Source: an uncultured Gemmataceae bacterium (lineage in GTDB: Bacteria > Planctomycetota > Planctomycetia > Gemmatales > Gemmataceae). From it: DNA of 34,905 bases. Of the stretch, positions 3,814-30,088 are shown piece after piece (the first letter of the stretch is position 1; each line of letters begins with the position of its first letter). Both the position numbers and the translations under genes were made by a program. The stretch is from NCBI GenBank assembly GCA_963750165.1, contig CAVVPN010000002.1:1-34905 (forward strand), read 5' to 3'. Under the pieces are notes generated by a model. That model did no database searches, was not told the origin of the DNA, and saw only the letters and a list, made by a program, of their open reading frames with translations.

Positions 3814-3818
3814 AAAAC

Positions 3819-9163: not shown

Positions 9164-9164
9164 A

Positions 9165-9575
9165 TCAGCGCCCTGCTTCGGCCAACCAGCGGTCGCCCCA
9201 CTCGTTCTTGACACTGTGTTCGGTCACCCGGCCATCGCGCAGTACGTAGAGGATGTCGTTGAGCCGGCGGCTGCCGTCCCGGTCAGGCTCGATCTTGTAC
9301 CAGACGGAACGTACGACCTGGACGCGGCCGCCGGGCCGAACCCTGAGCCGGGCGGCGAGCCGGCCGTCCAGGTCGTGCGGGCCCCAGGCGACGAACCGCG
9401 CCCCCTCGGCGCTGAGGTAGTCGGCGACGGCCTGCTCCTCCAAAGTTTCAGGCTCCGCCGATCCAACGCGCACCGCGGGCGCCGGACTGAAGACCTGGGC
9501 GCCCGCCAGGTAGCCGCCGGCCGCCCCAAGGGCCAGCGACAGCAGCCAAGCGGCGGCAATCGTTGTACGGTTCAT
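9165..9575 (-). CDS. Exported/membrane-anchored hypothetical protein
   Basis: N-terminal MNRTTIAAAWLLSLALGAAGGYLAGA signal/TM segment. Confidence 0.65.
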   Translation of the reverse strand: MNRTTIAAAWLLSLALGAAGGYLAGAQVFSPAPAVRVGSAEPETLEEQAVADYLSAEGARFVAWGPHDLDGRLAARLRVRPGGRVQVVRSVWYKIEPDRDGSRRLNDILYVLRDGRVTEHSVKNEWGDRWLAEAGR

Positions 9576-9589
9576 AGTACACTCTGGCA

Positions 9590-9626
9590 GCAATAGAATA
9601 TTGTGATACTACAATTATATTATAGG
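9590..9626. promoter_or_regulatory. AT-rich divergent promoter region
   Basis: AATAGAATATTGTGATACTACAATTATATTATA, a strongly AT-rich patch between divergent genes. Confidence 0.5.
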
Positions 9627-9764
9627 GATGGGTCGGCTGGCCCGGCTCGGGGCGCCGTGGCTGCCGGTGGACGGCGGTGCTTTGCAGTGGCGACGGTGTG
9701 ACCGGAGGGCGCTATACTTGGCTACAGTGCGGGGCAGGCCCACATAGGATTACGTGGCGGAGAA

Positions 9765-10292
9765 GTGATTATGGCGATCATGCGTGTCGGTAGGTTTTGG
9801 GCGAATTTCTGTGAAGAGCCCACACCATTCCGTCGGCGCGTAACACGGAGCGTGTGTGCCCTGGCCATTCCCTCGCACTATCAACTGGACGACCATTCCT
9901 GCGCCTTCGTGACCGCGCTCAACGTACTGAAGCACTACCATCCGCTGACGTCGCCAAGGGAACTGCTAGGGATTCTTCAACCGCATCCCGGCACGGGCCG
10001 CGACCAGGGCGCCGTCATCAGGGCCTTGCGGCATTTCGGCGTGGCAGCGAGTGTGCGTGTTGGGTTGGGGCCGCGCGGCATCTTCAACCTGCTGGTGCGC
10101 AACAGCTTGGTTATCGTCACGGTCTGGCCGGAAGGAGACGAATGCGACCACTGGTGCGTAATCCGTGGCATTGACCTTGTGCGGGAGAAGATCTTCTTGG
10201 TCAACCACGGGCAGCGCCGTGGGCTGACGTGGCGCGGGTTCAGGGACGTGTGGTGGCCCCGGGGGCTGGGGCTGGCGTGCGGGAGCGTTTGA
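9765..10292 (+). CDS. C39-like cysteine peptidase
   Basis: QLDDHSC (Q..C), DHWCVIRGID (His), IFLVN; start codon uncertain. Confidence 0.78.
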   Translation: MIMAIMRVGRFWANFCEEPTPFRRRVTRSVCALAIPSHYQLDDHSCAFVTALNVLKHYHPLTSPRELLGILQPHPGTGRDQGAVIRALRHFGVAASVRVGLGPRGIFNLLVRNSLVIVTVWPEGDECDHWCVIRGIDLVREKIFLVNHGQRRGLTWRGFRDVWWPRGLGLACGSV

Positions 10293-10397
10293 CGTGCCTT
10301 CGCGTCGGGAGCTTCAGCAAGCAGTTCCCTTGGCCCTGCCGCGGCCACCTGCGCCCGGTGAGGCATTCGCCGTAAGCGCCCTCTTCGCTAGGGGACG

Positions 10398-12712
10398 CTA
10401 TTCGGCACTTTGCTGTTTCGCGGCCCAGAAACCGCCGTCCCCATCGTTCTCCAGGGTAATCCCCCGCTCGCGTTGAATCCGGTGGGGGACCTGGGCGTTG
10501 ACGGTGGCCGCCATCGAGTTCCGGTCCTTGTGCGTGAACCGCTGGGCGAGCTTATCGACAATCTTCGCTTTGGTGAGTGGCTCCGTGGCGGTAGCCGCCA
10601 GCAGGAATTCGGCGATGCTGGCGATCACCCCGGGCCTACGGGATTTATCACTACCCCTGACGGCGAGGGTAGTGCCGCCGCTACCAGTGAGCTTGCCCAG
10701 GCGCTCAAGGATCATGTCGAAATCTCGGGGGCGGTCGCTGGGGTCTTGCTCGATACACTCCTCCACCAGTTCCAGGAGTGGCTGCCACCGAGGTGGTACG
10801 CACGCCCTGAATTTCGAGCCCAGATGGGTTGCCTTGGACCAGGCGTAAATGCAAGTCTTGCCGAAAGCGTATACGTCGCTGTGGCGGCCGATCCGATCTG
10901 CCGGCAGTTCACCGAGTTGCTCCGGCGGGGCGTATTTGATGGTTCCGGCTACACTTGCGTTGAGGATAGACTTTTCCGTAGACGACAGCCCGCCCTGTGT
11001 TTCCTCATGTTCCCGCCGCAAGGCCAGCCCGAAATCGATGATTTTGACAAACCACTTCTCCCCTTCCTTGCGGACGAGGATGTTGCCCGGCTTGAGGTCA
11101 CGGTGTAGGATTCCCTGGGCGTGGGCCGCCTTCATGCCGCGGGCGATCTGATCGGCGACGGCCAACAACTGCTCCGGTTTCAGGGTGCCCCGCTGCTCCA
11201 CGAATTGTTCCAGGGTGCCGCCCATGAAGTAGGGCATGACGATGTACGGCCGGGAGAGGCTGCCGAGTTCGGCATAGCTACAGTCCAGCACGCCGATGAT
11301 GGCGGGGTGGTTCAGCCCGCTCAGGGCGTGCGCCTCGGTGAAAACCTTGTCCGGTTTTCGGGCCAACTCGGAGACGTGTAGCGCCTTGACCACCACATCC
11401 TTGTGTTGGAAGAAGACGTGCTGGCAGAGAAATACGGTGCCGAAACCACCGGCCCCGAGGATGCGCACTGGCCGGTATTTCTCCATAGGGAAGGGCGCAA
11501 ACCGTTGCCGGTCAAGCGCCGCGGCTTGGCGGATCGCCTCCAAGGCCGCATCCCATTGCTGCCGCTCCAGCGCGGCCAAGTAGGCGTTGTAAAGCACCTC
11601 CGCTTTGGCGCCGGAATCGTTCACCTTGGCGGCGACCTGCTGGAATGAGGTCTGGGCGCCGTCGAACTCCCCGACGCCGACCTGAAGTTTGCCCAGGCCG
11701 TTCAGCAAAGCGGGCATCTGCTGCCGCTGTTCCGCAGGCAGTTGGCGGAAGCGATCAAGCAGCGCGTGGACGGCTTGACGTTCGTCGTCGCCGCGAATCG
11801 AAAAGCTGTTGCGGGGGTTGATCTCGCCGCGCTGCATGCCAGCATTCGCCAGTTGACGCTGTACGTCCTGCAACAAGGATCGCACCTCGCCCGCGTTCGC
11901 CAGGTGCAACTCGTGCAGGCGCCGAATCTCGGCTTGAATGTCCAGCACCGCGTCTTCAAGCCATTCGAGTCGATCGCCCAGCTTATGCAGGGCTTGATTA
12001 AGCCCATCGAACGCCGCGGCTTGGGCGGCGGAGAGTTGTCCTAGGTTGGCGAGCAATTCGGCTTGCCCCTGAAACAGCTGCCGCTGCCCGTCGTACAGCA
12101 GGCTGCGGGCCAGTTCCGCATTCGATTCGACCTCACGACGGAAGAAGTAACCGAAGGCCAGCACCAACAGAGGCGGCCCTCCCTGGGGGGGCAGGAGGAG
12201 CAGTTGGGCCAAGTTAGGGCACTGCGGCGTCAGGGCCTTGGCGACGCCCGCGACCGCTTCGGTCGCGCCCTTGATGAGAGAATGCTGGTCTGTATAGCGC
12301 CGAAAGTCCGCGCTCTGGCGAGCAATATCCGTGCGGTCCATGTTGTCGGCGGAAAGCAGCCTGGCTTTGAATGCCTTGTTGAGTTCGCTCAAGCAGGTGT
12401 CTCGAAAGGTGGGCGGCGATCCCTCAAAGGCGATGGGATTGCTGGTCAGAAAGCGGCCGACCTGCTCACGGAAGGCTTTCTCCTCAGCCGAGGCGAACAC
12501 CAGACGTTTGGCCTTGTCGAAAAGGCCATCACCGGCCAAGGCGACGCCCAAGGCTTTCCACGACCTGTCGTTGGCGGTTGCGAGCGCCGGGGCAGATTCT
12601 GGCTGGGGTCGGTGAAGTGCCGCTCGACGGCCGCCGCCACGCGATCAACCCCCTCCACGCCGAGAACCTGGCGGACACTAAAGCAGACGAGGCTGGAAAT
12701 GACGGAATGCAT
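10398..12712 (-). CDS. Ser/Thr protein kinase with N-terminal helical/TPR region and C-terminal wHTH-like domain (frameshift near 12588)
   Basis: GAGGFG, VVVK, HRDLKPGN, DFG, GTIKYAPPE, SDVYAFG; TPR-like LLNGLGKLQVGVGEFDGAQ; the N-terminus MHSVISSL.. joins after adding one base. Confidence 0.88.
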
Positions 12713-13166
12713 GAGGCGCTCCTCCAAGGGCGCGACTGGCACGTTGCCGGCCGTTTCACGGGCCAGTGTATGCCGGGCGCCAAGTCGTTTCCAGCGATGA
12801 TTTCAGGATTTGCGCAAAAGGGCAGAATGCGGGGGTGGACTGCCGCAGCTGGACGAATGCCGCTGCACGGGAAGGACAATACGAGCCACAGCGACACGGT
12901 GACGCCGAACGCCGCGAAGATCGTGCGGCGCCAGGAAGCGTTGATGCGGGCGGTGCTGGTTGCTGGGGACTTCGGCCTGATCGTGCTGGGCGCCAGCCAC
13001 GGCATGCCGCCGACGGCAACTTCGGAGGAGGTTGCCAACCCCGCCCCCCGGCAATCTTCTGGCCGTACAAGTCATGGGTTGCAAATACTCCTCAACGAAC
13101 CCAGAATGAGGTTGGGCTGTCACTATACAAATGGCAATCGCCCCTACGTCCCACAAGGAGAGCCCG

Positions 13167-14204
13167 ATGCCCCCGTCCATCGCCAGTGAACGGTTCGAGG
13201 AGATCGTCAAGGCCGCCGACCCCGTTGCCAAAATCCTGGGCATGGTCAACTCATCCCCGCCCACCGTCGAGGACGACTGGCTTGACTGCAAGCAGGAGCC
13301 GACCGACTCGAACGACCCCAAGCAGCGCGACAGCAAGATGAAAGGGATGTGGCTGCAGGCGCTGTCGGGGTTCAGCAACAACGAGGGCGGCGTCATCATT
13401 TGGGGCCTTGACGCCAGGAAGGACAGAAAGGACAAGAAGTCGTCCATTGACCAGATAAACGGCGTGAAACCAGTCAACGACCCGCAGGGGTTGCGGGCGA
13501 AACTCCTGGAGTGGCGGCGACAGGCCACCGACCCGCCGGTGGGCAACGTCCAGGTGCAAGCCTACGATCACCCGAGGGAGGCCGGGAAGGGCTTCGTGGT
13601 CTGCTTCATCCCGGAAGGGCCGCACAAGCCGTACCGCACCAACGAGGGCGACCGGTCGCAATACTACCTGCGGACGACGGACAGCTTTGTTGTCATGAGC
13701 CCGGCCATCCTGCGGGCCATGTTTTACCCCCGCACCAGGGCCGTGTTCCACGTCGAAGTTGAGATGAGTTGGGAGTTCTCCACTAGAAACGTGCCGTTTG
13801 CGCCCGCCCATGAGGCCAAAGTCACCGCCGTGGTGCGGGCGACAAACAAGGGAATGGCGACCGCGAAGGAAATTACGGTGCGCTGGGACCACCGCGTCCA
13901 CAAACTGCAAGGTTTGTTCACCCAGATGGGGCATGGGTGGCAAATTGAAACCGGGTACGTCCGGTGCCTGGTGGGCATGAATCCAGGCATGCCGATGTTC
14001 GAAATGGGGACTTGGAGTTGGACCGCTGAGGGCGTTATCCGTACAGACCACCGCGTCACGCCATTCCCTGACGACCCCGAGTTCAGGTTCGCGTTCTACG
14101 CGGAGAACCAGGAACCGCAGTACCTAGTCGCCCGGTTCAGTGCGGAAGAATTAGCTGACAACCGTCGAGTTATCGTAGAGGCATCAACCGGCGAGCCGTT
14201 TTGA
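13167..14204 (+). CDS. Schlafen/AlbA_2-domain protein
   Basis: EDDWLDCK, LSGFSNNEGGVIIWG, PHKPY..YYLR motifs; AAGGAG RBS before ATG at 13167. Confidence 0.82.
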   Translation: MPPSIASERFEEIVKAADPVAKILGMVNSSPPTVEDDWLDCKQEPTDSNDPKQRDSKMKGMWLQALSGFSNNEGGVIIWGLDARKDRKDKKSSIDQINGVKPVNDPQGLRAKLLEWRRQATDPPVGNVQVQAYDHPREAGKGFVVCFIPEGPHKPYRTNEGDRSQYYLRTTDSFVVMSPAILRAMFYPRTRAVFHVEVEMSWEFSTRNVPFAPAHEAKVTAVVRATNKGMATAKEITVRWDHRVHKLQGLFTQMGHGWQIETGYVRCLVGMNPGMPMFEMGTWSWTAEGVIRTDHRVTPFPDDPEFRFAFYAENQEPQYLVARFSAEELADNRRVIVEASTGEPF

Positions 14205-14247
14205 GGTGATGCTAGGCAGTATCCCCACTGGATTTGATGAGGACTGA

Positions 14248-15682
14248 ATGTTGAAAACCTCATTTTATACACAAGCGATGACAGCGGACGGCAAAACCGT
14301 TTCCATCCCGCTTGGCGACTTCCGCCAAGAGAAAGGCCCTTGGCCCATCAAGTTCGGTGTTCCCGTAGAACAGGCCGGACATTGGCTCCAGCACCTGCAA
14401 GCAGAATGCGGGCCTCGAGGCTGGGGCTACTCCAGCACCAGCGAAGCTAACCAAAAGGAGAACAGCGGTAGCATTACGATCCGCGCCGGGGCTATTGTAC
14501 CCTGCCCTGAACTGATCGTTGTTTGGAAGAGGCGCCGAGGTGGGACAATCGGCGTAAAGGCGCGACCTGCCGGAACTCCAGAACTGGATCGACCTACCGC
14601 GGACGAGTTCTTCGCCCGCGTGAACGATCGCGCGCGGCTAAACCAGCTTGAGAAAATTTACTGCCGCAGGGAGATTTACTACGATGGTCTTCCCTGGCTC
14701 GGCGAGTTGTGGCTGGATGATTCGCTCAGGCTCGGTCCACCATCACGGCAATACGAGGAGGCGTTGTGCGGCCCCCGGGTCATCCTTGTGGACGCCGAGG
14801 TTGAGGCGATTGACGGCCACGACGCTGGCTGCGTCTTCGACCTGAAGTTGCGCGAACTGTCGGTTTTCCTCAGCATCGTCATGCGGACGAGCGTGGAGTG
14901 TCCCAAACTCGGGCGCGAGTGGGTGTTCGATGTCTTACCGGACGGACAGGCAAATAGCGAGGCTCGCCAACTCGGCTACCACGAACCGAACCGCCTCTCC
15001 GCAATGCCAGCGAAAGGAACGTCACCACCGATTCCGCTCCATCCTGTCAGCAGGCCAGACTTTTCCGAACCAGTCATCTACTGCGAATGGAAGCAAGAGA
15101 AACTGCCCTGGGACGTGGTGGACCTGTGGCGAGCCTACACCTCGTTATCGGACGAAGCGCGACGGCGATTCTTACAGGCCGGCAACCTTTATCGCCGGGC
15201 CATCTCACTCGGACGCGACGAGCAGACGCTCCGCGTGGCCCTGATGGTGGTCACCTGTGAGGCGCTGAAACTGCCGGAGCAGAAGTACGACGGGCATAAC
15301 GCCGCGAGCGTCGTCCAGGCACTGCTGGGGAACGCCGCCGGAGCGGTAATACTCGGGAAGGACGTTCACCCCTTGGGGGTCCGCAACATGCACCTGCACC
15401 GCGGGGAGTTCAAGGGAGGTGAGTTCCTGAAGTTGGTCACCGAGTCCAGCGACCGCGACCCCACCTTCGACCAGCGTAGCAGAGAACTTGGCGCCATCAC
15501 CTGCCGCCATCGTCGAATGGCTGAGGAAGGGCGGCACCTACACCCTGCCGCCGAAACGGTTTGCTGCTCGCACTCGTTGGGGCCGAGGAACCATCACCCT
15601 TCTGCTTATGGCAGCCGGGGCCATCCTTGCTGGCGGCGCAGTCCTCGGCTGGCTTCTCCACGGCCTATTTGCCGGAAGTTGA
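14248..15682 (+). CDS. HEPN-like (ApeA-type) protein with C-terminal TM helix (frameshift near 15500)
   Basis: ALMVVTCEAL and RNMHLH (Rx4H) motifs; the +1 frame continues AAIVEWL..ITLLLMAAGAILAGGAVLGWLL. Confidence 0.55.
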
Positions 15683-15974
15683 TCTGGTCTAACGGCAGGG
15701 GCTGCCACTACCACAAATATGGATGGGCCAACGAGCTTTGCACCGGTGGTCACTGCGGCCGGGGGCCACGCGGTAGCGGCCTCCGCGTGGCCCCCGGGCT
15801 TTGCTCTCCAAACCGTTGGGCCGGGTAGCTTACATGCGCCCTGACGGCGCCTAAAGGGGTGGGCCAGGTATGCCCCGAACACCAGACGCCCCAGCCGCTG
15901 TTATCATTCTCGTCCGTGCTTTACTGGACACCGTGCCAAGTCCCATTCTACCGTCTGGCCATCCCTCTGTATTG

Positions 15975-16019
15975 TTTACCCAACCTCGGTTGCCCTGCCC
16001 AACCACGATTGGGTAAAAT
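15975..16019 (+). promoter_or_regulatory. Promoter with two palindromic operators upstream of XRE-integrase
   Basis: CAACCTCGGTTG (15981-15992) and CAACCACGATTG (16000-16011); outer inverted repeat TTTACCCAA/TTGGGTAAA; TTGCCC-18 nt-TAAAAT. Confidence 0.55.
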
Positions 16020-16060
16020 GGGCAGTGGAGGTGCGCAATTAGGCTGTAGGAGGAATTGGC

Positions 16061-16315
16061 GTGAGCGACTTCGGTACCAACCTGAAACGTCTGCGGGCGG
16101 CCAAGGGGCTGACGGTCTACCGTCTGGCTCAGCTGTCCGGCGTGACCGAACAGAACATCGCCAAGCTGGAAGAGGGGGGCAACCCCAAGCTGACCACGCT
16201 GGTCAAGCTGGCCGCTGGCCTGGGCGTGCCCGTGGCCGAACTGATTCCCGCGGCCAAACCCGCCCGCAAAAGCAAAGCGGCCGGCAAGGGTGTTACCAGC
16301 ACCCCGCCGGCCTGA
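16061..16315 (+). CDS. XRE/Cro-C1 family repressor
   Basis: LKRLRAAKGLTVYRLAQLSGV..IAKLEEG.NPKLTTLVKLA; AGGAGG RBS. Confidence 0.92.
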   Translation: MSDFGTNLKRLRAAKGLTVYRLAQLSGVTEQNIAKLEEGGNPKLTTLVKLAAGLGVPVAELIPAAKPARKSKAAGKGVTSTPPA

Positions 16316-16344
16316 ACACCACGACCCTGGATAGGAGGATCGCA

Positions 16345-18146
16345 ATGTCTGCCAAACAGTTTAACCGACCCGCCACCGCAAACGGCAAGACCGTGCGTGT
16401 GGCCTGCTACTACCGCATGTCAACGGCTGAGCAGGACGGCAGCATCGACCGCCAGCGCAGTCAGGTCCGGCCTTACTGCAAACAGAAGGGCTACGCCATC
16501 GTCCAGGAGTACGTTGACGAGGGCATCGCCGGGGACCGCGACGACCGGCCCGGCTTCCTCAAGCTGATGGCAGACGCCAAGGCCGGCCTGTTCAGCCGCA
16601 TTGTGTTGGACGAGCCGAGCCGGCTGAGCCGCGCCGACCCCCTCGACTTTCTGGCCAAGGTCGCCCACCCCCTGCGGGCGCAGGCGTTACCGTCGATACC
16701 GTGGCAGACGGCGAGCAGGGCTGGGACGACCTGGCGGCCATCATCATGGCCACCGTCAAGGCTGACCGCAGTTCGGGCGAGGTCAAGAAACTGTCGCACC
16801 GCGTCCTGTCCGGCATGGCCAAACTCGCCGCCGGCGGGCACGTCCTCGCCGCCGCTCCCTACGGCTACAAGATCGAGTATGAAACGGTGGAGTTGCCGGG
16901 CAAGCCGCCCAAAACAAGGCCCGTCAAACTGGTGTCTGACCCCGCCCGGGCTCGTCACGTCACCTGGCTGTTCTCTACCTACGCGGCCGGCGGGCGCACC
17001 CTGGACTCGCTCTGCAAGGAACTGAACGCCCGCAACGCCCTGCCCCCGGCCGGCAACGGCGGCCGCCGGCCCAAGTACGGCCCGAAAGGGCCGCCACGCT
17101 GGACCCGGTACGTCGTAAGGACCATCTTGCGCAACCCGCGGTACACCGGCTGCCAGGTCTGGAACTGCCGCACCCGGAGCAAATACCACACCCTCGCCGA
17201 AGGGGGAAGGCTGGAGGTCAAGAGCCGACACGGTGAGGGGAGTAAGCCCCTGCAACGCGAGCCGTTCAACGACCGCTCTGCATGGGTGGTCGTCCCCAAC
17301 GCTCACGAACCACTTACCGACCAGAAGACTTTTGATGCCGTTCAGGCCCGGCTGGCAGACCACTCCCACAGCGGCCGCGGCTCCAACCTCGGCGCCTACC
17401 TGTTCAGCGGCCTGGGCGTTTGCCTGCACTGCGGCCGTAGTTTGAAGGGCGCCAGCAAGGGCGGCCGGCGCTACTACATTTGCGCTGCCTACGATGCGGC
17501 CGGTGTCAAGGTGTGCCAGTACGGGACGATCAGGGAGGACGTGTTACTGGCCAAGCTCTTGGAGGTGATGAAGCAAACCTTCCTTGACCCCGACCACCGG
17601 AGCGACCTGCTGGCCCGCGCCAGGGCCAAGCTGGAGCGGGAAGTCCGGCCCGAGACTTTGGAACCGCTGCGCCGGCAGCTGGCCAAGTTGGAGACGGACA
17701 TTGCCCACGGCAACCGCAACCTGCTGTTACTGCCGCCGGAGCGCGTGGCTGTGGCAGTGGAGACGTTGAAGGCGTGGGAGGCCGAACGGGACCGGCTACG
17801 GGAGGAACTGAACGAGCGCGAACACGGCTCGCCGGTAACCGACCTGGAGGCCACCTTCAGGGCTGTCGAGGAGTGGCTGGGCCAGCTGGAGGAGTTGGTC
17901 AAGCGTGGGGCCAAGCTGGGCACGTTGCCGCGGCTGCGGGACGCCATCCGGGCAGGGCTGGCCCGGTTCGCGGTGCGGTGGGAACACCGACGCATGAAGA
18001 AACGGGTTCGACACGACTTGGCCGACGGCGTGTTCCACCTGTGGGACGCGCGGGGGGTCGTGAAGCAAGTATCCTGGGGTAAACACGGTTGGCCGTCCAC
18101 CCGACACACGAACCGCCAGGCGCCCTGGTTGTTGATGAACTTGTAA
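16345..18146 (+). CDS. Large serine recombinase/integrase (frameshift near 16678)
   Basis: YYRMST, DEGIAG, DRPGF, SRLSR; PYGY, ILRNPRYTG, HEPL; zinc ribbon YLFSGLGVCLHCG..YYIC..C; coiled coil. Confidence 0.93.
18072..18088. other. Right attachment junction of element A
   Basis: TCCTGGGGTAA-ACA-CGG, where capsid coding similarity ends. Confidence 0.72.
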
Positions 18147-18886
18147 TGTTCGCTGAAGGCGATCTCGATCATCTGGCGGTCGCCCACCAGGTAGTGCTGC
18201 AGGTTGAGCAACAGGATGTCGCCGAGCGTGTTCAGCGCCGGCAACTTTTCGCTGACCACGATGGGGATGCCGAACAACTGCATCCGCGGCGCGTCCTGGG
18301 CGTTGCTCAGGAAAATGTTGGGGCTGCCGGCGGCGGTGGCGGCCATCGTCAGCAGCTTGACCAGCACCGTCGGGTGGATGGCCCAGACGCTGCTGCGGGC
18401 GTTCCAGCCCGGCAGCATGCGGCCGAGCATGCCGCCCACGTCCGCCAACGTCACCGCGCTCGCGCCGGAGCGCGTCACGGACACCAGTGCCGTCGCGTTG
18501 AGGATGCCCAGCGGTTTGCCGGCGCCGTCACCGCGCAGGAAGGCGTAATCCTTGTACCAACCCAGGGCGTTGCCGAAGATTTGCAGCAGCAGTGCCTCCA
18601 GGCCGACGGCGTTGTCGTTCAGCAGCGCGTTCGAGGCGAGCGTGTAGCCGCTCAGCTCGTGGGCCGTCAGGCGGATCTGCTTGAACGTCGGCTCCTTCTC
18701 GGTCAGCTGCTGCGCCTCCACGGACCAGGTGGCGGTGACGCCACCGAAGTACGCGGTGTCGCCGGCCTGCGGCGGCGTGGTCACGTCCAGGGCCGGGATC
18801 TCGATGGACTGCGACGCCATCGGCACCCGCGTCGCCCGGCTCTCGACCACGCCTGTCTCCGCCGACAGCATCAGCAGATTCGGCAG
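18086..18886 (-). pseudogene. Internal fragment of an HK97-fold major capsid protein gene, cut at both ends
   Basis: EPTFKQIRLTAHELSGYTLASNALLND, AFLRGDGAGKPLGILNA, WAIHP, LFGIPIVVSEKLP, YLVGDRQ, WRFVCRVDGQP; lacks both the N-terminal GGY.VP region and the C-terminal tail. Confidence 0.9.
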
Positions 18887-19003
18887 GGACTTGGTTGCGT
18901 ACAACCGGGCGGTAGGCAGGTTGCAACCGGCGGAATTCCAAGGGATTTCGCTACCGGCTGGTTGCGGAGACACCTTCCATCCGCCTCCCGCCTGGTTGGA
19001 ACT

Positions 19004-19023
19004 GTAACAGCTTGTGTAACACC
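19004..19023 (+). repeat. Integrase arm-type site, left copy
   Basis: GTAACAGCTTGTGTAACACC, 17/20 identical to 34801-34820. Confidence 0.7.
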
Positions 19024-19024
19024 C

Positions 19025-19059
19025 GGGGCCGGGCCGCACGGCGCTGCGAGCCCGGCCCC
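19025..19059 (-). terminator. GC-rich hairpin closing the leftward operon of element B
   Basis: GGGGCCGGGC / GCCCGGCCCC 10-bp stem, 30 nt downstream of the stop at 19089; weak U-tract. Confidence 0.45.
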
Positions 19060-19088
19060 AATGGTTGACGTGTGAAGCATTCGGCGGC

Positions 19089-19478
19089 TCAGTCGGGCGG
19101 CGCGTCCTGCCCGGGGGGCCAGGCCCGGCGGACGCAGCGCGCCGCCGCCCGTAGTTGCCCCAGCGCCTGCCGCAGTCCCGGCGCCCGCCCCAGCTTCAGC
19201 CGCCCCACCTCCAGGGCCGCCAGCAGCAGCGCCGCCCGCGCCCAGGGCCACGGGCCGGCGTCCGGCCCCGGCTCCACGACCAGGTCGGCGGCGCGGCCGA
19301 ACAGCAGCCCCTGAAAGCCGACGCCCACGGCGTGCAGCCAGCACGCCGCCCCCTCCAGGCGCGCCTCGACCGCCAGGGAGCCGTCGTACACCCGGGCCGC
19401 GGCGAACAGGCGGGCGCCGGCCTCCCCCCACTGCCGCCTGAAGTCCGCCCACAGCGCCTCGGTCAACGCGTCGGCCAC
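19089..19478 (-). CDS. Hypothetical protein
   Basis: GGAGGGG RBS and GTG start directly after the tape-measure-like gene. Confidence 0.6.
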   Translation of the reverse strand: MADALTEALWADFRRQWGEAGARLFAAARVYDGSLAVEARLEGAACWLHAVGVGFQGLLFGRAADLVVEPGPDAGPWPWARAALLLAALEVGRLKLGRAPGLRQALGQLRAAARCVRRAWPPGQDAPPD

Positions 19479-19493
19479 GTCCCCTCCGGTGCC

Positions 19494-21816
19494 TCAGTCC
19501 CCGCCCGGCGCGATGTCCAGCACGTCCACGCCCTGCGCCCGCAACTCTTCCAGGATCGCCTGCAGCGTCCGCTGGCGGGCCTCGCCCTGCTGCTCGATCG
19601 CCGCCAGGGTGCGGGCGGCGCGCTCCCGCGGGTCGTTGGCGCGTTCCTCCTCCCGGTAGCGGTTGACCGCCTGGATGGCCTCCCGGCTGCCCAGGGCGAC
19701 GCCCGTCGGGTTCTTCGCGACCTGGACGCCGCCGGCCGCCTGCTCCAGCCGCTCGAACGCCGCGTAGGCCGCGCGGGCGTAGCCTTCGACGCCGTCCGCC
19801 GCGTCGAACCACAGTTCGTTCAGTCGGGCCAGCTCGTCGTTGAACAGCTCCAGGGGGGAGCGGTTGGCCAGCGCGGACTGCGTGCGCTGCAGGGCGCGGA
19901 AGGCGTTGTCGGCCGCGATCAACTGTTCCTCGCTGGCGCCCTGCACCTCCAGTTGCCAGGAGTGGAAGGCCGCCGCCGTCATGGCGGCCTGGCGCTGCTG
20001 GCGTTCCAGGTCGCGGGTTACGTTCTCGAAGGCATCGACGTCGATGCCTTCCGGGCCGCCCTGCGCCGCCGCGCGGGCGCGGACCTGGGCCTCGGCGTAG
20101 CGCAGCAACTGCTCGATGGCGCGGGTGAACCCCACGTCCGTGGGCGCCGGCCGGTTGAGCCGGTCGCGGGCCGCGTTCACCGCGTTCAGCACGTCGGTCA
20201 GGTCACGCAGGCGACCAGCCAGGTTGGACGCCTCGCCGATGGTCCGCGGCATGTCCAGCGCGTCAAAGGCGGCGCGGGCGAGCCCGGTCGGGTCCATGTC
20301 GGCGATGCCGCGGGCCGCGTCGTAGGCCGCCGTGTAGGCGTTGCGCAGCCCGTTGACGAACGTGTCAACGCCCTCGACGCACTTGCGGATCGTCTGGTAC
20401 AGGTTGAGCCCAACGGCGACGATTTCCAGTGTCACCGAAGCGACCATCTTCAGGCCGGCGGCCAGGACCAGCACCGCGTTCTCGCCGGCGTCGCGGAAGT
20501 TGCCTTCGACGTTCGAGGAACTGTGCACCAGCATCCGGAACACGTCGGCGAGGTCCTGGAACGAATTGAACACCTGCTCGAACGTCGGCCCGAACCGCTC
20601 CAGGCCGGCGTTGAAGCCATCGACGAACCACCTGGCCAGGTGGCCGATCTCGTCGAAGCCGGCGCGGACGGCCTCGAACAGCGGCTGCGCCAGGTTGATG
20701 GCCTTGTCGAAGCCGGTCGCGATCCCCTCCCATACCGGGGCCAGGGCGACGCCGGCCCGGACTTCCAGGCCCTGGAACAGGGCGCCCCAGTCGGAGGCCA
20801 TGCGCTGCCGGGCGCGGTTGGCGCCGCCCACGGCGGCGGACTCGGCCCTCGTCACCACCAGGCCGAAGCGCACGCGCCCGTGCCGTGGCCTCGGCGAGCG
20901 CGTCGCCCTGCTGATACAGCAGGGGGGTCACCCCCTGCGCGGCCCGGCCGAAGACGCCGTAGAGCCGCGCGTTGTTCTGGTTGGCGTCGGCGTTGTTGCG
21001 GACGCTCTCCCCGATGCGCGCCATGATGGCGGCGGTGTCGCCGGCCCGGACCATCTCCATGCTGACGCCGAGCCGCCGGAAGGCGTCCTGCGCCTCCAGG
21101 CTGCCGCCGCGGGCCTGGGCGATCGTGCGGTTGAGGCGGAAGAAGCCGGCGGACAGCTCGCCCACGTCCTGCCCGGTCTGGCCGGCGAGCAGCTGCAGCC
21201 CGGCGGCGCTGGCCGTGCTCATGCCGAACTGCCGCGCCATGCGCGCCTGCTCGCGGATGCGGCTCATGCCCCGCTCGCCCATCTCGATGAACGTCTGGGT
21301 CAGCCCGATGGCGGTGTCCTTGACGAAATTCAGCGCGGGGAGGAGGACGCGGTTGGCGGCCAGCGCCGCCACGCCGATGGGGCCGGGGATCTGCTCCAGG
21401 GCGCCGAGGGCGGCCTGGGCCGCGGGGGGCACGCCCTTCAGCTGGCCGAGCAGTCCGTTGACGCCCTTGCCGATGCTCCCGTTCAGGATGGTGCCGACGT
21501 TGCCGAAGGCGTTGCCCAGGCCGGACGCCATCGAGGACGGCAGGGCCTTGAACGCACCGGCCAGGGCCTGCTGCCGGGCCGCGGCCGCCTCCTTGGCCAG
21601 CCGCGGCGCGTCCAGCCAGTCCTGGACTTTCTTGTTCTTGGCGGCCGCGGCCTGCCGGTCCAGGGTCTTGGCGAGGTCGGCGCCGCTGACGCCGCCGCCG
21701 ACGGCCTTGGCCGCCTTGTCCAGCTCCTTCAGCCGCGCCACCGAGCCGTCGATGGACTTCTGGAGCCCGGCGTCGTTGGCCGAAATCAGGACCGCGAGGT
21801 TGGCAATGTTGGCCAT
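19494..21816 (-). CDS. Tail tape-measure-like protein (~773 aa; frameshift near 20878)
   Basis: MANIANLAVLISAND N-terminus, Ala/Gly-rich helical sequence, ARQFGMST..LQLLA, AFRRLGVS, spaced aromatic residues; two ORFs join with one indel. Confidence 0.8.
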
Positions 21817-21900
21817 GACGGGCCGCCCTTTCTATCCCCGGAGTGCAGGCGCCTGCGCCGGGATTCTGCGCACCGGCCGCGCGTACGTCGCCCCGCCTCG

Positions 21901-22245
21901 TCACGCCGGCCGGTTCGTCTTGCCGGCGGCGAGCGCCGCCTCTTCCCCGGCGCTCAGCAGCCCCTTGCGGCGCAGGTAAGCCGTCTCGCCTTCCTTCTTC
22001 ATCTCCCGGCGGGCCGCCTCGTCCTGGTCCAGTTGCCACCACGCGTACGGGCGGCGGCCCGGGTACTTTTCGGTGAACCAGGCCAGGACCGTCTCCAGGT
22101 GGATCTCCCAGGCCACCGCAAAGTCTTCGGGCGTCTTGTAGCCGTCGAAGAACGGCGTGCCGCTCGCCAGGTGCTGGCGCTGGTCCTTGCTCAGAACTTC
22201 CAGGTCCGCGCGGCGCGTCCGTGGCTTGCGTCGTGGCCGCGGCAT
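21901..22245 (-). CDS. Hypothetical protein downstream of TerS
   Basis: GGAGG-like RBS, ATG at 22245, PGRRPYAWW..YLRRKGLL. Confidence 0.65.
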   Translation of the reverse strand: MPRPRRKPRTRRADLEVLSKDQRQHLASGTPFFDGYKTPEDFAVAWEIHLETVLAWFTEKYPGRRPYAWWQLDQDEAARREMKKEGETAYLRRKGLLSAGEEAALAAGKTNRPA

Positions 22246-22247
22246 GG

Positions 22248-22580
22248 TCACTTCCTCCCGGGGCGCGGCGGCCTGGCTTCCGGCGCCGGCCCGTCCAGGT
22301 CCAGCTCGCGCAGCAGCCGCGCGAACGCGATGCGGCTGTCCCGCTCGATGGCCACCTCGGGGCGGGTGCGGGGCTGGCCGAAGCGGTCGTTGTAGGTCAC
22401 GCCCTGCCTGTCCAGCACTTCCCGGGCCTGCTCGGCGCGGTCCCACGCGCTGCCGGCCAGGGCCAGCAACCGCAGGTGGTGCTCGTCCAGCTCGTAGGCG
22501 GCGACGACGTTGTTCCACCAGCGCTTCGTCGCCGCCCGCAGGTGCCGCGGCGGCGTCTGTTTCTGCTGCTTTCCGGCCAC
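22248..22580 (-). CDS. terS: P27-family terminase small subunit
   Basis: PPRHL..KRWW..AREVLDRQGVTY.DRFGQPRTRPEVAIERD..LLRELDL. Confidence 0.85.
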   Translation of the reverse strand: MAGKQQKQTPPRHLRAATKRWWNNVVAAYELDEHHLRLLALAGSAWDRAEQAREVLDRQGVTYNDRFGQPRTRPEVAIERDSRIAFARLLRELDLDGPAPEARPPRPGRK

Positions 22581-22804
22581 GAAAACGGCCCTCCCGAACG
22601 TCCCAAGACGGCCCCCGACACCGCGCCCGCCCCGGCGATCCTGACCGGGCGAAACGACTCCCCGGCGCAGCGCCGGGGGATGACCAGTCGGCGCAAAGTC
22701 CGACGGCCTCAGAAACTTCCACCACGGGTTGCAACCTCACCCGGTGCTGTACACCTCACCAGATGCCGGCCGTGGTGCCTCGCGGCGTCGTGCCGGTATT
22801 CCGT

Positions 22805-22895
22805 TTTGGTTTCCGTACGCGAAAAATCGCGCGAGCCAGGCGTTACGGTCATGACTTTGCCTGCCCAGAGAGGTTGATTACCCTGGTAGGGGTCG
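22805..22895 (-). other. Candidate cos/packaging site
   Basis: Non-coding gap upstream of terS; the minus strand reads CCCCTACCAGGG..GACCGTAACGCC..CGCGCGATTTTTCGCG, resembling cos regions of P27-TerS phages. Confidence 0.35.
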
Positions 22896-22995
22896 TGGCC
22901 GTGGTGTCGGGGGTGCCGCTGGGCCATGCCGCTTGGGGCGGCTGGGCGTGGCTCCTGACGTGTGTGTGTGATGGGCCGGGCTGGTGCTGCCCGGT

Positions 22996-23382
22996 TCAGT
23001 TGGGCGGCGCCGGCGGCTGCTGGGCTTGCTGCTGGTGCTCGTCGAGGGTCGGCCCCAGCAAGCGCCGCAGGGACCGCCGCAGCACGCGGCCTTCCTCGGG
23101 GTGCTGCTGGAGGGCGTGCTCGATGCCGAGCAGTTGCAGCGCCAGGTCCCGTACCGACTGCCGCCCGATCGCGGGTAGGACGCCGCCGCCCAGGGCCCGC
23201 CGGTCCTGCTCGCGCACGTCCGGGTGAACGTCGGTCGGGGCCGGGCGACAACCGCCCGGCGCGCCCTGGTCGATCTCCAGGGGGGTCCCGCACCGGCCGC
23301 AGGCGCGGAAGGTGCGGTCGTGGGATTCCAGCAGGATAACCTGCTGCCGGCAGGCGGGGCAGGTCACGATGATGTTCGCCAT
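22996..23382 (-). CDS. Zinc-ribbon protein
   Basis: CPAC..CGRC at the N-terminus. Confidence 0.65.
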   Translation of the reverse strand: MANIIVTCPACRQQVILLESHDRTFRACGRCGTPLEIDQGAPGGCRPAPTDVHPDVREQDRRALGGGVLPAIGRQSVRDLALQLLGIEHALQQHPEEGRVLRRSLRRLLGPTLDEHQQQAQQPPAPPN

Positions 23383-23413
23383 GATGGGGTCTCGATGCAG
23401 TGTCAGTGGGCTG

Positions 23414-24373
23414 TCACTTGACCAGCCGGGCCATGATCTCCAGCGTCTTCTTCTGCCGCTCGCGCTGCTCCGCCCGCAGCCGCAATACGTGGGCGTTCGC
23501 CTTGCGGGCCGAGGCCCGCTTGCCGGTGCCGCTCGTGCCGGTGCCGAGCAATTTGGAGGTGAACTCGCTCGCCGTTTCCAGCCGGTCGAGCATTCCCGCC
23601 CGCAGCCCGTCCTTCGCCGACACCAGCATGCCGCGGCCGAAGTCCCGCTCCACCGTGGCCCGCTCCTTGCGGCGGTTGACGGCCACGTTCTTCACGAAGT
23701 CCTGGTAGAGCGCCACCACCTGGCGGCGGAACTCCGCCGCGGCCTCGGGGTCCAGGTTCTCATAGGGGTTGCCGCCCGTCTTCAGCGGCGGTTCGGCGAT
23801 GATGGTCACCTTCTCCCCGGCCTTCTCGAGCGCGCCGGCGTGGGACACGTGCAGGTCGTAAACGCCGATGGAGCCGACCTCGCAGGACGGCATCCCGACC
23901 ACCTCGGAGGCGGCCGACGCCAGCCAGTAACAGGCCGACGCGCACAGCGGATCGACGTAGGCCACGACGCGCCTGTCCGACCGCGCCTTGCGGATCATGG
24001 CGGCCGTCTCGGGTACGCCGGTGCCGCTGCCGCCGGGGCTGTCGCAGTACAGCACGATGGTGTCCACGCGCGGGTTGCCGACGGCGGCCTCGAACTGCTG
24101 GGCGAACGCCTGCAGGTCCGTTCCGCCCAGCAGCATGCCGAGCAGGCTTTGCTTGTACTCGATGATGCCCTGCAGGCCGAGCACGGCCACGGCGCCGCCG
24201 CGCTGGTCCTGCTTGCCCTTGACGTCGTAGGTCGCCAGCTTCGGCGCCTCGCCCCGCTGGCGTGCGGGCAGCGGCTGCCGCAGCAGCGCCTCGACGCGGG
24301 CCAGCGCCCGGCCTTCGAGCAGCCAGAGGCCGCCGGCGGGCAACTGCGCCTCCCTCGTGGTCCCGAGTCTCAC
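23414..24373 (-). CDS. S49-family (SppA / lambda gpC-like) head maturation protease
   Basis: DSPGG, ASACYWLAS, GSIGV motifs; GTG at 24373 overlaps the upstream stop (GTGA) with a GGGAG RBS. Confidence 0.87.
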   Translation of the reverse strand: MRLGTTREAQLPAGGLWLLEGRALARVEALLRQPLPARQRGEAPKLATYDVKGKQDQRGGAVAVLGLQGIIEYKQSLLGMLLGGTDLQAFAQQFEAAVGNPRVDTIVLYCDSPGGSGTGVPETAAMIRKARSDRRVVAYVDPLCASACYWLASAASEVVGMPSCEVGSIGVYDLHVSHAGALEKAGEKVTIIAEPPLKTGGNPYENLDPEAAAEFRRQVVALYQDFVKNVAVNRRKERATVERDFGRGMLVSAKDGLRAGMLDRLETASEFTSKLLGTGTSGTGKRASARKANAHVLRLRAEQRERQKKTLEIMARLVK

Positions 24374-24897
24374 CTGCGGTGACTCCCCAGCGTCGCGTAC
24401 ACGGCGGCCGCGGACAGTTGCCGCAGCCCATCCACCTCCGGCGTCGCCAGCAGCCGCCGGGCCAGCGCGAACAGTGCCCGCTCCTGGCGGGCGAGCAGCC
24501 GGCGGGCGTCGCCCACGGCCATGTCGAAATAGGTCGTGACGTTGACGTTCACCGGCAGCCGGTCCAGCTGAGCCATCATGACCTGCCAGTCGTTCTTCAC
24601 GGCCAGGTGGCGCTGCAGGGATTTCATGCCCCAGGGGTTCGTGCGGGCGCCGCCGCCGTGCACGATCTCCGCCATCGGCCCGGCCGCGGTGACGAGCAGT
24701 TCTTGGCGCACGCCCTGCTGCCGGTACGAGGCCTTGAAGCTGACCGCCCCGCTGTGCCGCCCGTCGTCGTGGCGCAGCAGGCGAACGCTGTCGATGGGGA
24801 AGCGGCTTTCGCCCTGCCCCCACGAAGCGAGCGCGTGACCGCTCTCGTGCAGGGCAACGGCCCAAGCGTCCGCGCTCACGTCGGCCGGCCGGTCCAC
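24370..24897 (-). CDS. Stand-alone HExxH metallopeptidase (M41/FtsH-protease-like)
   Basis: VALHESGHAL, AAGPMAE, ND motif and C-terminal ALARRLL helix. Confidence 0.72.
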   Translation of the reverse strand: MDRPADVSADAWAVALHESGHALASWGQGESRFPIDSVRLLRHDDGRHSGAVSFKASYRQQGVRQELLVTAAGPMAEIVHGGGARTNPWGMKSLQRHLAVKNDWQVMMAQLDRLPVNVNVTTYFDMAVGDARRLLARQERALFALARRLLATPEVDGLRQLSAAAVYATLGSHRR

Positions 24898-24900
24898 GCC

Positions 24901-25464
24901 TTACTCCTCGCCGGCGATGTAAGCGCGCTGGCTTTTCGCGTGCCACACGTACTGCCGCGCGAATTCGATCATGTCGTTCGGGCAGACGCGCCGGCAGGCC
25001 CCGGGGAAGTGGTCGTGGAAACTCGCGCCCGTGAGGCGTTCCACCTCGAGGGCGAACGCCTTCATCGCGTCGCCCGCGTCAACCAGCCCTTCCAGCGCCG
25101 CCAGCACGTTCCCCAGCAACTTGCGGTGCTTGGGCTGCAGCTGCTGGTACAGCGCGACGTTGCCGCGTACCGCGGCCTGGTCGAGCGCCGCGGCCTGTTC
25201 CTTCACCGCCCGGCGAAGGGCGGCGACCTTGACCTCGGCGTGGCTCAGGCGCGAACTGCGGCTGTCCAGGTGCTTCGCGACGGCCTTGTCGTCGCCGGCC
25301 ACCACGAGCCGCAGCAGCTCGGCGTCGTCGCCGGCGGCCTCGGCCCGCTTCGCCGCCAGCACCTCAGCCTGCGCCGCCGCGAGCCGTCGCCGCAAGTCCG
25401 CCAACTTCCGCGCCGCCTCGGCCACCTCCGGGTGCTCGGCCGCCGCCGGGAACGTCTTGCTCAT
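24901..25464 (-). CDS. Coiled-coil hypothetical protein
   Basis: Ala/Leu heptad-rich sequence; operon position. Confidence 0.65.
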   Translation of the reverse strand: MSKTFPAAAEHPEVAEAARKLADLRRRLAAAQAEVLAAKRAEAAGDDAELLRLVVAGDDKAVAKHLDSRSSRLSHAEVKVAALRRAVKEQAAALDQAAVRGNVALYQQLQPKHRKLLGNVLAALEGLVDAGDAMKAFALEVERLTGASFHDHFPGACRRVCPNDMIEFARQYVWHAKSQRAYIAGEE

Positions 25465-25493
25465 GGTGTGCGTTTCCACGTGGTCGTTGAGGG

Positions 25494-25594
25494 GGGTCAG
25501 GAGACGACGGTGCCGTTGCGCCCTTTGTCCCGGCAAATTTGCCGGGACAGAATTTGCCGGTGTGCCGGGTCAGGAGACGACGGTGCCGTTGCGC
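25494..25594. repeat. 28-bp direct repeat flanking a 45-bp insert that contains a perfect 24-bp palindrome
   Basis: GGGTCAGGAGACGACGGTGCCGTTGCGC at 25494-25521 and 25567-25594; TGTCCCGGCAAATTTGCCGGGACA at 25526-25549. Confidence 0.9.
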
Positions 25595-25836
25595 AGCCCG
25601 TTCATGAGCAGCTGCCGAAAATATTCCAGCCCCTGGTTGAGCCGGGACGCGGGGCCGCCGACGCCGCCGGTATCGAGCCGCACGCGCCGATCCGCGGCCT
25701 CGTCCACCAGCCGGGGCATCCTGGCGACCAGGGCGTCAATGGCGGCCGCGGCCGCCGCGGTCAGCGCCGTCAGGTCCTCCGGCTCGGCCGGGTGCCGGTG
25801 GCGGTGCTCGCGCACTTCGTGTTCCAGGTACTGCAC
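25570..25836 (-). CDS. Hypothetical protein
   Basis: GGAGG RBS and GTG start; operon context. Confidence 0.6.
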   Translation of the reverse strand: MQYLEHEVREHRHRHPAEPEDLTALTAAAAAAIDALVARMPRLVDEAADRRVRLDTGGVGGPASRLNQGLEYFRQLLMNGLRNGTVVS

Positions 25837-25850
25837 GCCTCGGTCCTCCG

Positions 25851-26069
25851 CTAATCCAGCACCACCAGACTCCCCGCGGCCTGCAGCTCGGCCAGCACGC
25901 GCCGCGCGTCGCCCAGGGCGGCACGCAGGCGCGTCAGCGCCGCCGGCTGCACGGCGAGCTGCTCGCCGTCGAGGGCCGGCAGGGCGACGGCCTCGGCGAA
26001 GCGCTCGAGTACCCCGGCCAGCGCGTCCAAGCGCGGACTGACGTCATTGGCCGACCTGCGGGGCCGCAT
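25851..26069 (-). CDS. Hypothetical protein
   Basis: GGAGG RBS and ATG at 26069. Confidence 0.6.
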   Translation of the reverse strand: MRPRRSANDVSPRLDALAGVLERFAEAVALPALDGEQLAVQPAALTRLRAALGDARRVLAELQAAGSLVVLD

Positions 26070-26146
26070 GACTTTTCCTCCACTTGAACGTTACGGGGCG
26101 CCAGCGCCGCCGGGCAAACTCGGTGCCCAAATTCCGGTTGCCGCGG

Positions 26147-26473
26147 TCAACTCGACCGGCCAGCGCAGCAGCCGCCAGCGCCCCGGCGCTTGCGGAAGGC
26201 CCAGGCCTCGAGCCGGCGACTCGGGCAGGCGAGCCACGTCACGACCTGCGGCAGCGCCAGCAGCAGCGGCGCCGCCGTGGCTTCGTTGAGAAAGCCGGCG
26301 TCAGAAAGGTGCACCGCCAGCGTCACGTCGGGGCGCACGGCCAGCAGGTCGATGAAACCGTGCAGGCGCGAGCGCGAGCGCAGCGTGCCGACACGCCGGC
26401 GGACGATGGCGGCGTGCCAGCCGTCGGCCTCCAGGGCCAGTATCGCGCGCTGCAGCGGGGTGCTGTCGGCCAT
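26147..26473 (-). CDS. PD-(D/E)xK-fold, Holliday-junction-resolvase-like protein, possibly degenerate
   Basis: LEADGW..LHGFIDLLAVRPDVTLAVHLS..LEAWAFRK. Confidence 0.5.
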   Translation of the reverse strand: MADSTPLQRAILALEADGWHAAIVRRRVGTLRSRSRLHGFIDLLAVRPDVTLAVHLSDAGFLNEATAAPLLLALPQVVTWLACPSRRLEAWAFRKRRGAGGCCAGRSS

Positions 26474-26477
26474 GAGG

Positions 26478-26684
26478 TCATTTCTCGGGAGGGGTCGTTG
26501 CCGTCGCAGCCGCCTGCACTTCGGCCTGGTCGGCCGGCACCTCGGCGGCGTTGACGCAGCGTAGGGAAAGTCCCCTAAGTGCAAATTTGAGCAGCCGCGC
26601 GACGCGGCGGCCGACGGGTACGGGTGATGCCGACGGCCTCAAATGCAAGATCACGTCTCCGGGCTGCTTGTCCACGGGCATCAC
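26478..26684 (-). CDS. Small hypothetical protein
   Basis: GTGA overlap; LHLRP..RRVARLLKFALRGLSLRCV. Confidence 0.6.
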   Translation of the reverse strand: MMPVDKQPGDVILHLRPSASPVPVGRRVARLLKFALRGLSLRCVNAAEVPADQAEVQAAATATTPPEK

Positions 26685-30076: not shown

Positions 30077-30088
30077 GTGACACCTCCG

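Follow-up and report, generated by a model that had tools for sequence, protein, structure and literature searches.

We analyzed a 34,905-nucleotide stretch of DNA from an uncultured Gemmataceae bacterium: positions 1 to 34,905, on the forward strand, of contig CAVVPN010000002.1 (assembly GCA_963750165.1). This stretch, which we call the window, is the whole of its contig (67.3% G+C, with no N). The source assembly comprises 9.62 Mb in 12 contigs, and we use short labels for those within it: C2 for the contig analyzed here, and up to C11 for the others that are mentioned below. The window contains an internal piece of a gene for an HK97-type major capsid protein (MCP), which we call fragment F. 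It lies between element S, an island with a large serine recombinase (LSR), and element T, which resembles a phage satellite and has a tyrosine integrase. The features that define this arrangement are:

1 to 18083, plus strand: element S, an 18.08-kb island with the LSR at its right end, delimited by an 11-bp inverted repeat
5 to 15, plus strand: left terminal inverted repeat of S (TTACCCCAGGA), the proposed P' half-site of a serine-integrase attachment (att) site
16345 to 18146, plus strand: LSR gene (Pfam Resolvase, Recombinase, and Zn-ribbon domains; phrog_95; reading frames)
18072 to 18082, plus strand: right terminal inverted repeat of S (TCCTGGGGTAA), the proposed P half-site
18084 to 18887, minus strand: fragment F, an internal piece of an HK97-type MCP gene (PF05065; BLASTN to C3)
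18888 to 34905, minus strand: element T, 16.0 kb and satellite-like with a tyrosine integrase, delimited by the stop of capsid homology, arm-type motifs, and gene content
19004 to 19023, plus strand: first copy of an arm-type motif (GTAACAGCTTGTGTAACACC), 117 bp inside the left end of T
33804 to 34904, plus strand: tyrosine integrase (int) of T (PF00589, E = 7.4e-14; phrog_1, E = 2.9e-26)
34801 to 34820, plus strand: second copy of the arm-type motif (GTAACAGGTCGCGTAACACC), 85 bp from the right end of T and within the 3' end of int

Fragment F is 804 bp of open frame with neither a start nor a stop codon of its own. Its minus-strand frame is stop-free from 18886 to 18086 and reads LPNLLML...VDGQP. 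It matches the Pfam family Phage_capsid (PF05065) with E = 1.8e-35 and 123.1 bits (the cut-off is 24.2) across profile positions 19-272 of 280, and it scored 125.1 bits when we scanned the whole genome with this family. The assembly also contains an uninterrupted MCP gene of 441 codons, on contig C3, and fragment F corresponds to codons 151-417 of it. As F covers only part of the profile and only these codons of the 441, it is not a complete gene. Fragment F and its counterpart on C3 (C3:2489698-2490501) are 99.005% identical over 804 bp, and they differ by eight synonymous substitutions scattered between 18089 and 18877 (six in third codon positions and two in the first positions of leucine codons; protein identity is 100%). 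This pattern rules out that F is merely an assembly duplicate of the copy on C3. The homology to the capsid gene breaks off to the base at either side, so both ends of F are sharp. An earlier reading of this DNA from its letters and open reading frames (the sequence-only reading) had described an intact internal segment of an MCP gene that ends sharply on both sides. We agree, with its extent corrected to 18084-18887, and the segment fits the uninterrupted homolog on C3 with zero indels. Judging from this comparison, fragment F is real and sharply bounded, and it is a distinct allele that has diverged under purifying selection.

The intact gene on C3 reads ...GGYTVPTEF ahead of the stretch that is equivalent to F, and WMRDKVTLADATTTLSPFVGLAPG and then a stop codon behind it. 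The gene is part of a cluster at C3:2482121-2495087, whose order is Xis/AlpA, large terminase subunit (TerL), portal, S78-type protease, MCP, phrog_28483, head-tail adaptor, three unknown genes, and an ATPase. The sequence-only reading had predicted that the flanks of F would encode an N-terminus that ends near GGY.VP, with portal and TerL genes nearby. These features are all present in the intact allele on C3, where the protease, portal, and TerL genes lie upstream of the MCP. That reading had also referred to the interrupted phage as a helper. What we see on C3 is a cluster of TerL, portal, protease, MCP, and adaptor in which we did not recognize any tail or lysis genes; it may be a full prophage, a satellite that forms capsids, or something else.

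Relatives of the MCP are common in this family: counting the source genome, 155 of 201 genomes have a match with E ≤ 1e-5. We examined the loci of six other genomes, and the order of protease, MCP, and adaptor was kept in all six, while the portal was present in five and TerL in three (some of these loci are cut). The host gene TGT adjoins the cluster in the source genome, but in none of the six other loci. Because the gene order is kept and this neighbor is not, we regard the head cluster as a phage-like module that is widespread and mobile rather than fixed at one place in the chromosome. We had considered a gene transfer agent (GTA) that is vertically fixed at a conserved place, and we rejected this for the same reason. 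The genome also contains a second, decayed capsid fragment (C10:21971-22426; codons 104-253, 47% identity), in which the site GGYLVPDEF/LPRL is uninterrupted (here and below, a slash marks the position of a breakpoint in F or its equivalent).

To describe the two breakpoints, we used an alignment of 11 full-length MCPs (57-63% identity) and fragment F. The T site comes after a nearly invariant motif, GGYTVP.EF/L, with conserved residues G142, G143, Y144, V146, P147, and F150 ahead of it. The S site is within an invariant run, RVDGQP/W, with R412, G415, Q416, and P417 ahead and W418 behind. The nucleotide conservation of 30-nt windows around the two breakpoints is at the 75th and 92nd percentiles. 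Site-specific elements commonly pick conserved targets, and the end-points of random deletions would not be expected at such motifs. The left junction of T is inside the capsid gene, after codon 150, and its right junction is beyond the end of C2. S is flanked on its right by the capsid gene, through codon 417, and on its left by no more than 2-4 bases within C2.

The ends of both elements have the kinds of repeats that recombinases of their classes use. The inverted repeat of S is perfect over 11 bp and has just two copies in the window; the right copy lies 1 bp from the capsid homology. The LSR has all three Pfam domains as well as the catalytic motif YYRMSTAEQ. Its frame enters fragment F by 60 nt, up to a stop codon at 18144-18146, and capsid DNA supplies the last 20 codons. 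The statement of the sequence-only reading that F abuts the 3' end of the serine integrase gene is accurate for the end of element S, which coincides with the edge of F, but not for the gene itself. The named NCBIfam model that comes closest to the LSR is XisF, from the fdxN element (E = 4.1e-16), although the 59 bits are far below the cut-off of 375.

On the other side of F, 18888-19088 is non-coding, and the arm-type motif at 19004-19023 recurs only at 34801-34820, which bears out another statement of that reading. The motif is bipartite and 20 bp long (GTAACAG.T.G.GTAACACC). It has only these two matches in the window, in the same orientation, and none of 100 shuffled sequences gave any match. 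We spotted it by eye in k-mer output and then checked it against the shuffles; the counts of k-mers that are shared between the two ends of T were not above background. The joined ends of T would amount to one compact attP that has an arm-type site on either side and does not include fragment F. This argues that T is a discrete element and that F lies outside of it.

The assembly contains a second haplotype. Identity to stretches of the main contigs is 99.09% for C7, 98.95% for C8, and 99.72% for part of C6; the differences are mainly substitutions, and indels too separate the alternative contigs from the main ones (6 gaps in 2,666 bp and 30 gaps in 10,338 bp). C8 starts exactly with an insertion sequence (IS) element, which is inserted at C3:1839009/10 in that haplotype. 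Since C6, C7, and C8 look like alternative paths with about 99% identity and with insertions, the assembly mixes at least two closely related haplotypes. More precisely, C6, C7, and C8 appear to be alternative paths of stretches on C11, C4, and C3, from which they differ by IS and other insertions.

We lean toward the view that C2 is a strain variant of the capsid-gene locus on C3, in which the gene is interrupted twice. One copy of the HK97-type MCP gene, in a cluster of TerL, portal, protease, MCP, and head-tail adaptor, would have received two independent site-specific insertions, each at a conserved motif: S would have entered the gene after codon 417, and T after codon 150. C2 would then consist of S, the middle 267 codons, and T, and beyond its outer ends the sequence would rejoin DNA that is shared with C3. 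The same molecule would carry the codons that are missing here, 150 N-terminal and 24 C-terminal ones, on the outer sides of the two elements. No capsid protein would be made while either element remained, and the precise excision of both elements would rebuild the MCP gene.

Several lines of evidence favor this double insertion. The S breakpoint is 1 bp from an inverted repeat that recurs only at 5-15, which is how the P and P' half-sites of a serine integrase should look, and the T breakpoint is the end of an element that has the same 20-bp motif near both of its ends. Both breakpoints are in invariant or nearly invariant motifs of the MCP. The three parts of C2 differ in G+C content (63.9% for S, 67.3% for F, and 71.3% for T), while F matches the intact head cluster on C3 (67.8%). 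The small contigs are alternative paths at about 99% identity, at least one of which (C8) starts at an IS insertion, and the identity of F to C3 is in the same range. C2, with one insertion, 804 bp at 99.0% identity, and a further insertion, resembles such a path that is anchored at the two sites in the capsid gene. The flanks on C3 are as predicted, with GGYTVPTEF at the expected place and with the protease, portal (PF04860), and TerL upstream. Each element has well-defined ends, one of which abuts the capsid gene, and site-specific insertion by default leaves the remaining half of the target at the opposite end. Finally, there is precedent in satellites of the phage-inducible chromosomal island (PICI) type, for which integration within a helper prophage's capsid gene is described (PMC10111431).

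The sequence-only reading had gone further and proposed two unrelated satellites with recombinases of different classes. There are indeed two elements, their recombinase classes and their composition differ, and T resembles a satellite, but S does not: it has none of the hallmarks. That virions would be made only after both elements excise (an AND-gate) is something that we can only infer, and it depends also on an LSR with a broken frame in this assembly. We are doubtful of the full scenario, in which the MCP gene is held in three pieces by two unrelated elements, each with its own homolog of a head-maturation protease, and virions need both of them to be excised. Such a scenario would amount to two gatekeepers embedded in one helper, in a host that is probably a planctomycete and not one of the Enterobacteriaceae.

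A number of results weigh against the double insertion. The two outer junctions, which would be decisive, lie beyond the ends of C2. C2 begins 4 bp ahead of the inverted repeat of S and ends 1 bp past the stop codon of the T integrase, and with no assembled DNA outward of S and T, the outer parts of the capsid gene cannot be seen. Within the assembly, MCP codons 1-146 and 421-441 occur only once, on C3, and the portal in the cluster on C3 is the only match to PF04860 in the genome. The second copy of the gene must therefore be assumed to be collapsed or unassembled. Also, the resolvase domain of the LSR is in a different frame from its remaining domains, which implies a one-base break near 16640-16680 in this assembly. 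As the alternative contigs differ by indels too, a real mutation and an assembly error look alike here.

The relatives of the two recombinases give the double insertion no help either. Relatives of the LSR (E ≤ 1e-20) are found in 17 of the 201 family genomes, again counting the source genome, and the best is 41% identical. None of the 20 loci that we inspected, at no more than 41% identity, have capsid homology (E ≤ 1) beside the LSR relative. The T integrase has closer relatives (50-64% identity), at 41 metagenome loci and 1 viral locus, and none of these 42 loci have MCP homology (E ≤ 1e-3) beside the integrase. In 8 of 18 loci that we examined, a convergent gene has its 3' end at most about 105 bp from that of int. 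We could recognize six of these eight genes (PSCyt2/PSD1 twice, TauE, DUF3754, LeuA-type, and ferredoxin); they are ordinary chromosomal genes and look complete. A tRNA gene was near the integrase in 1 of 22 loci scanned, at a distance of 1 kb, and no downstream gene was shared among the loci except between near-identical contigs. From these sequences, integrases of this clade seem to lie at the very edge of their elements and to face the target, as in T, and their recorded targets seem to be the ends of chromosomal genes and not late genes of phages.

The first six bases of C2, GGAATT, also count against the double insertion: they are identical to the sequence of C3 across the right breakpoint (GG/AATT), which would be expected if the end of C2 ran on into its start, that is, if C2 were a circular molecule. 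Fragment F would then be captured cargo on a closed 34.9-kb circular or composite mobile molecule, and the cell's capsid gene would be the intact copy on C3. The capsid piece might have been picked up from beside an integration site, for instance by aberrant excision. Other observations fit with this. When we compared the full window to all 12 contigs of the genome by BLASTN, there was just one other match of at least 150 bp, which is the capsid fragment on C3, so nothing on C2 besides F matches other contigs. By exact look-up, five of seven C2 proteins are singletons that are confined to their own contig (the other two have no record). Element T has a replication module. And among the cases reported in PMC10111431, there is a capsid-embedded PICI that carries two segments of its helper; these adjoin the integration site, and their order is reversed.

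We nevertheless consider the cargo explanation unlikely. It requires S to have crossed over no more than about 4 bp from where the end of T meets F; it requires a supposedly illegitimate breakpoint to coincide with the invariant RVDGQP/W; and it leaves the arm-type motifs of T parted by F plus S (about 18.9 kb) instead of together in one attP. For these reasons we rank it below the double insertion. In addition, a circle that was cut at random is unlikely to start 4 bp from the repeat of S and to end 1 bp after the stop codon of int, and the GGAATT match is only 6 bp and was found post hoc. With a circular molecule, the S crossover would be AA; with two insertions, GG would be the end of a CACGG core that is common to attP and attB, and AATT would match by chance. 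The symmetry of the rebuilt att sites favors neither a central AA nor a CACGG core, and neither of the two models. The joined ends of S (attP) are symmetric at 15/24 or 14/24 positions, which 1.3% or 3.7% of random windows reach. The attB of the double-insertion model is symmetric at just 12/24 positions, and 24% of random windows score at least as high.

A short palindrome at the right-breakpoint site of C3 (GGAATTCC; C3:2490500-2490507) recurs 44 bp inside T (18932-18939). This recurrence and the GGAATT at the start of C2 may be due to chance, or they may be clues to the crossover sites.

There are two other explanations. Fragment F could be a dead relic: S and T would have hit a second copy of the capsid gene whose outer parts were later deleted, at a chromosomal place that is not assembled, and nothing could be rebuilt. 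The decayed capsid fragment on C10 shows that such remnants exist in this genome, partial capsid matches are common among related genomes, and the LSR frame is broken. However, F has no nonsynonymous change, stop codon, or indel relative to the intact allele, unlike the relic on C10, and both edges of F are the ends of elements instead of arbitrary deletion points, so we view this explanation as quite improbable. Or, the assembler might have joined two strains across the 804-bp repeat, one with S in its capsid gene and another with T. The assembly does include at least two haplotypes at about 99% identity, and F is a repeat that is shared with C3. But the small number of contigs (12 for 9.6 Mb) implies long reads, which would easily span 804 bp. 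Furthermore, F differs from C3 within 6 bp of the end of S and within 11 bp of the end of T, so the stretches next to both junctions are from the non-C3 allele. We consider a chimeric join to be very improbable.

If the double insertion is correct, the arrangement would vary on known kinds rather than found a new category. The closest parallels to T are the helper-embedded PICIs (HE-PICIs), which are satellites within the late genes of helper prophages, most commonly in capsid gene E (Tommasini, Mageeney & Williams 2023, PMC10111431). The HE-PICIs described so far are from Enterobacteriaceae, their helpers are lambdoid, and their integrases are from one clade of tyrosine integrases. That paper also describes one helper with two HE-PICIs in two different genes, and some HE-PICIs that lie inside a late gene of another PICI. 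Element T is similar in that it is 16 kb, has an integrase, Xis-type, replication, and late-type genes, and has an end inside a capsid gene. Most genes of T run in the same direction as that gene, but its int is oriented against it, and only one junction of T is visible. The setting differs as well: the host has 45 genes with PSCyt2 domains, which points to Planctomycetota, its head cluster has no recognizable tail genes, and the second occupant uses a serine recombinase. Compared to PICIs in general, T likewise packs int, Xis, a primase-helicase, the small terminase subunit (TerS), and a head protease into 16 kb without an MCP, portal, or TerL; however, we did not find any relative of T among the 200 other genomes of the family or among viral contigs (with a 459-aa protein of T as the query).

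The sequence-only reading had known of no described case in which one gene is interrupted by two elements with different recombinase classes. For genes in general, such a case exists: nifD of Calothrix sp. NIES-4101 is cut by three elements, whose recombinases are CnXisD1 and CnXisD2 (both serine) and CnXisD3 (tyrosine) (Uesaka et al. 2024, PMC11249958). All of the elements must be excised to rebuild nifD, and its restoration was shown by resequencing and PCR. There too, a single gene is in several pieces because of insertion elements of mixed recombinase class. In contrast, nifD is a cellular gene, the cells are terminally differentiated, the elements are not satellite-like, and the restoration was demonstrated, whereas the gene here is a virion gene.

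Full-text literature searches turned up no capsid gene that is split by a serine-integrase element or that hosts two elements. If the outer parts of the gene do flank S and T, then embedding in capsid genes would extend from the lambdoid prophages of enterobacteria to a distant phylum and to another type of head cluster. This would be the first case that we found of one virion gene that holds elements of both the serine-recombinase and the tyrosine-recombinase class. It would also be a testable case in which several parasites of one phage share one conserved target. If F is cargo or a relic, then the finding is ordinary.

The other features of the two elements are:

4597 to 5514, plus strand: homolog in S of S78/HK97-type prohead proteases (PF04586; 305 aa in the public record)
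10398 to 12551, minus strand: Ser/Thr protein kinase of S (Pfam Pkinase, E = 1.5e-38)
13131 to 14204, plus strand: Schlafen/AlbA_2-domain protein of S (PF04326, E = 2.1e-10)
19025 to 19059, minus strand: G+C-rich hairpin past the last gene of T, between the late genes of T and F (-42.3 kcal/mol, z = -1.99)
22248 to 22580, minus strand: TerS homolog of T (phrog_83, E = 8.6e-8; phrog_1496)
23414 to 24369, minus strand: S49-type head-maturation protease of T (PF01343, E = 1.8e-19; phrog_53, E = 7.6e-59); the start is approximate, as the open frame reaches 24946
27516 to 29741, minus strand: DUF3987 primase/helicase-type replication protein of T (PF13148, E = 1.7e-44; phrog_2373)
29738 to 30076 and 30089 to 30520, minus strand: two small Xis/MerR-like genes of T (phrog_66, phrog_2474)

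Element T has a PICI-like set of genes, with int, the Xis-type genes, a replication gene, and late genes (the S49 protease and TerS). It also encodes regulators that resemble HTH and sigma-r4 proteins (Pfam and PHROGs), and we did not recognize an MCP, portal, or TerL in it with these two libraries. Its recognized genes share the minus strand with the capsid gene, except for int, which is on the plus strand. Consensus terminators and promoters had no match in 17900-19300; the hairpin at 19025-19059 lacks a T run, which explains why the terminator scan did not report it.

In element S, scans with Pfam, PHROGs, PADLOC, and NCBIfam identified just the LSR, the S78-like protease homolog, the kinase, the Schlafen/AlbA_2 protein, and a weak match to HTH. 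The same scans gave no replication module, TerS, capsid-redirecting gene, or Xis. Many genes of S have no recognized function, and one of these, a 447-aa ORF (7285-8628), has one distant homolog besides itself. The protease homolog is just above the cut-off for PF04586 (22 bits versus 21), and its homologs bear this domain; it is 28% identical to the prohead protease on C3 (E = 7e-11). The similarity of the kinase to the defense kinases PD-T4-6 and MAD6 is confined to the kinase domain, and its scores in PADLOC and NCBIfam are below the cut-offs. Another known system to compare with S is SPbeta in spsM of Bacillus subtilis, which is reportedly an intervening element with a serine recombinase. 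Like S in the double-insertion reading, it is large, carries an LSR at one end, and divides a protein-coding gene. The differences are that we did not identify a recombination directionality factor for S, and that its LSR frame is broken in this assembly.

Both neighbors of F have homologs of head-maturation proteases, from different families (S78-like in S and S49 in T), and neither of them has a recognizable capsid gene. Within T, the coding signal shifts between minus-strand frames at about 20870-20900 (from 21816 downwards to 20873-19494) without a stop and start that would fit, so the two genes that meet there may be one gene that is split by an indel, as in the LSR near 16640-16680.

Searches for relatives of S and T as a whole returned little. 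Against 40 related genomes, their DNA had only short matches or matches to the kinase domain, and in collections of genome contigs and viral contigs, the LSR had two short, distant matches. The 459-aa protein of T had no match in the 200 family genomes other than the source, and neither it nor the primase of T had relatives in viral contigs. In the ESM Atlas, the protease frame of S had no usable match, and the 459-aa protein matched unnamed viral clusters only (0.90-0.91). Among the relatives of the T integrase, two loci (L054 and L056) are from one metagenome contig of 59,880 bp that has the same integrase region at both ends, inverted, which resembles a fold-back assembly artifact. In the gap between the kinase and Schlafen genes of S, an 84-bp stretch (12926-13009) is 85% identical to C11:1091896-1091980 and to C11:1530655-1530739, and it appears to be a short dispersed repeat.

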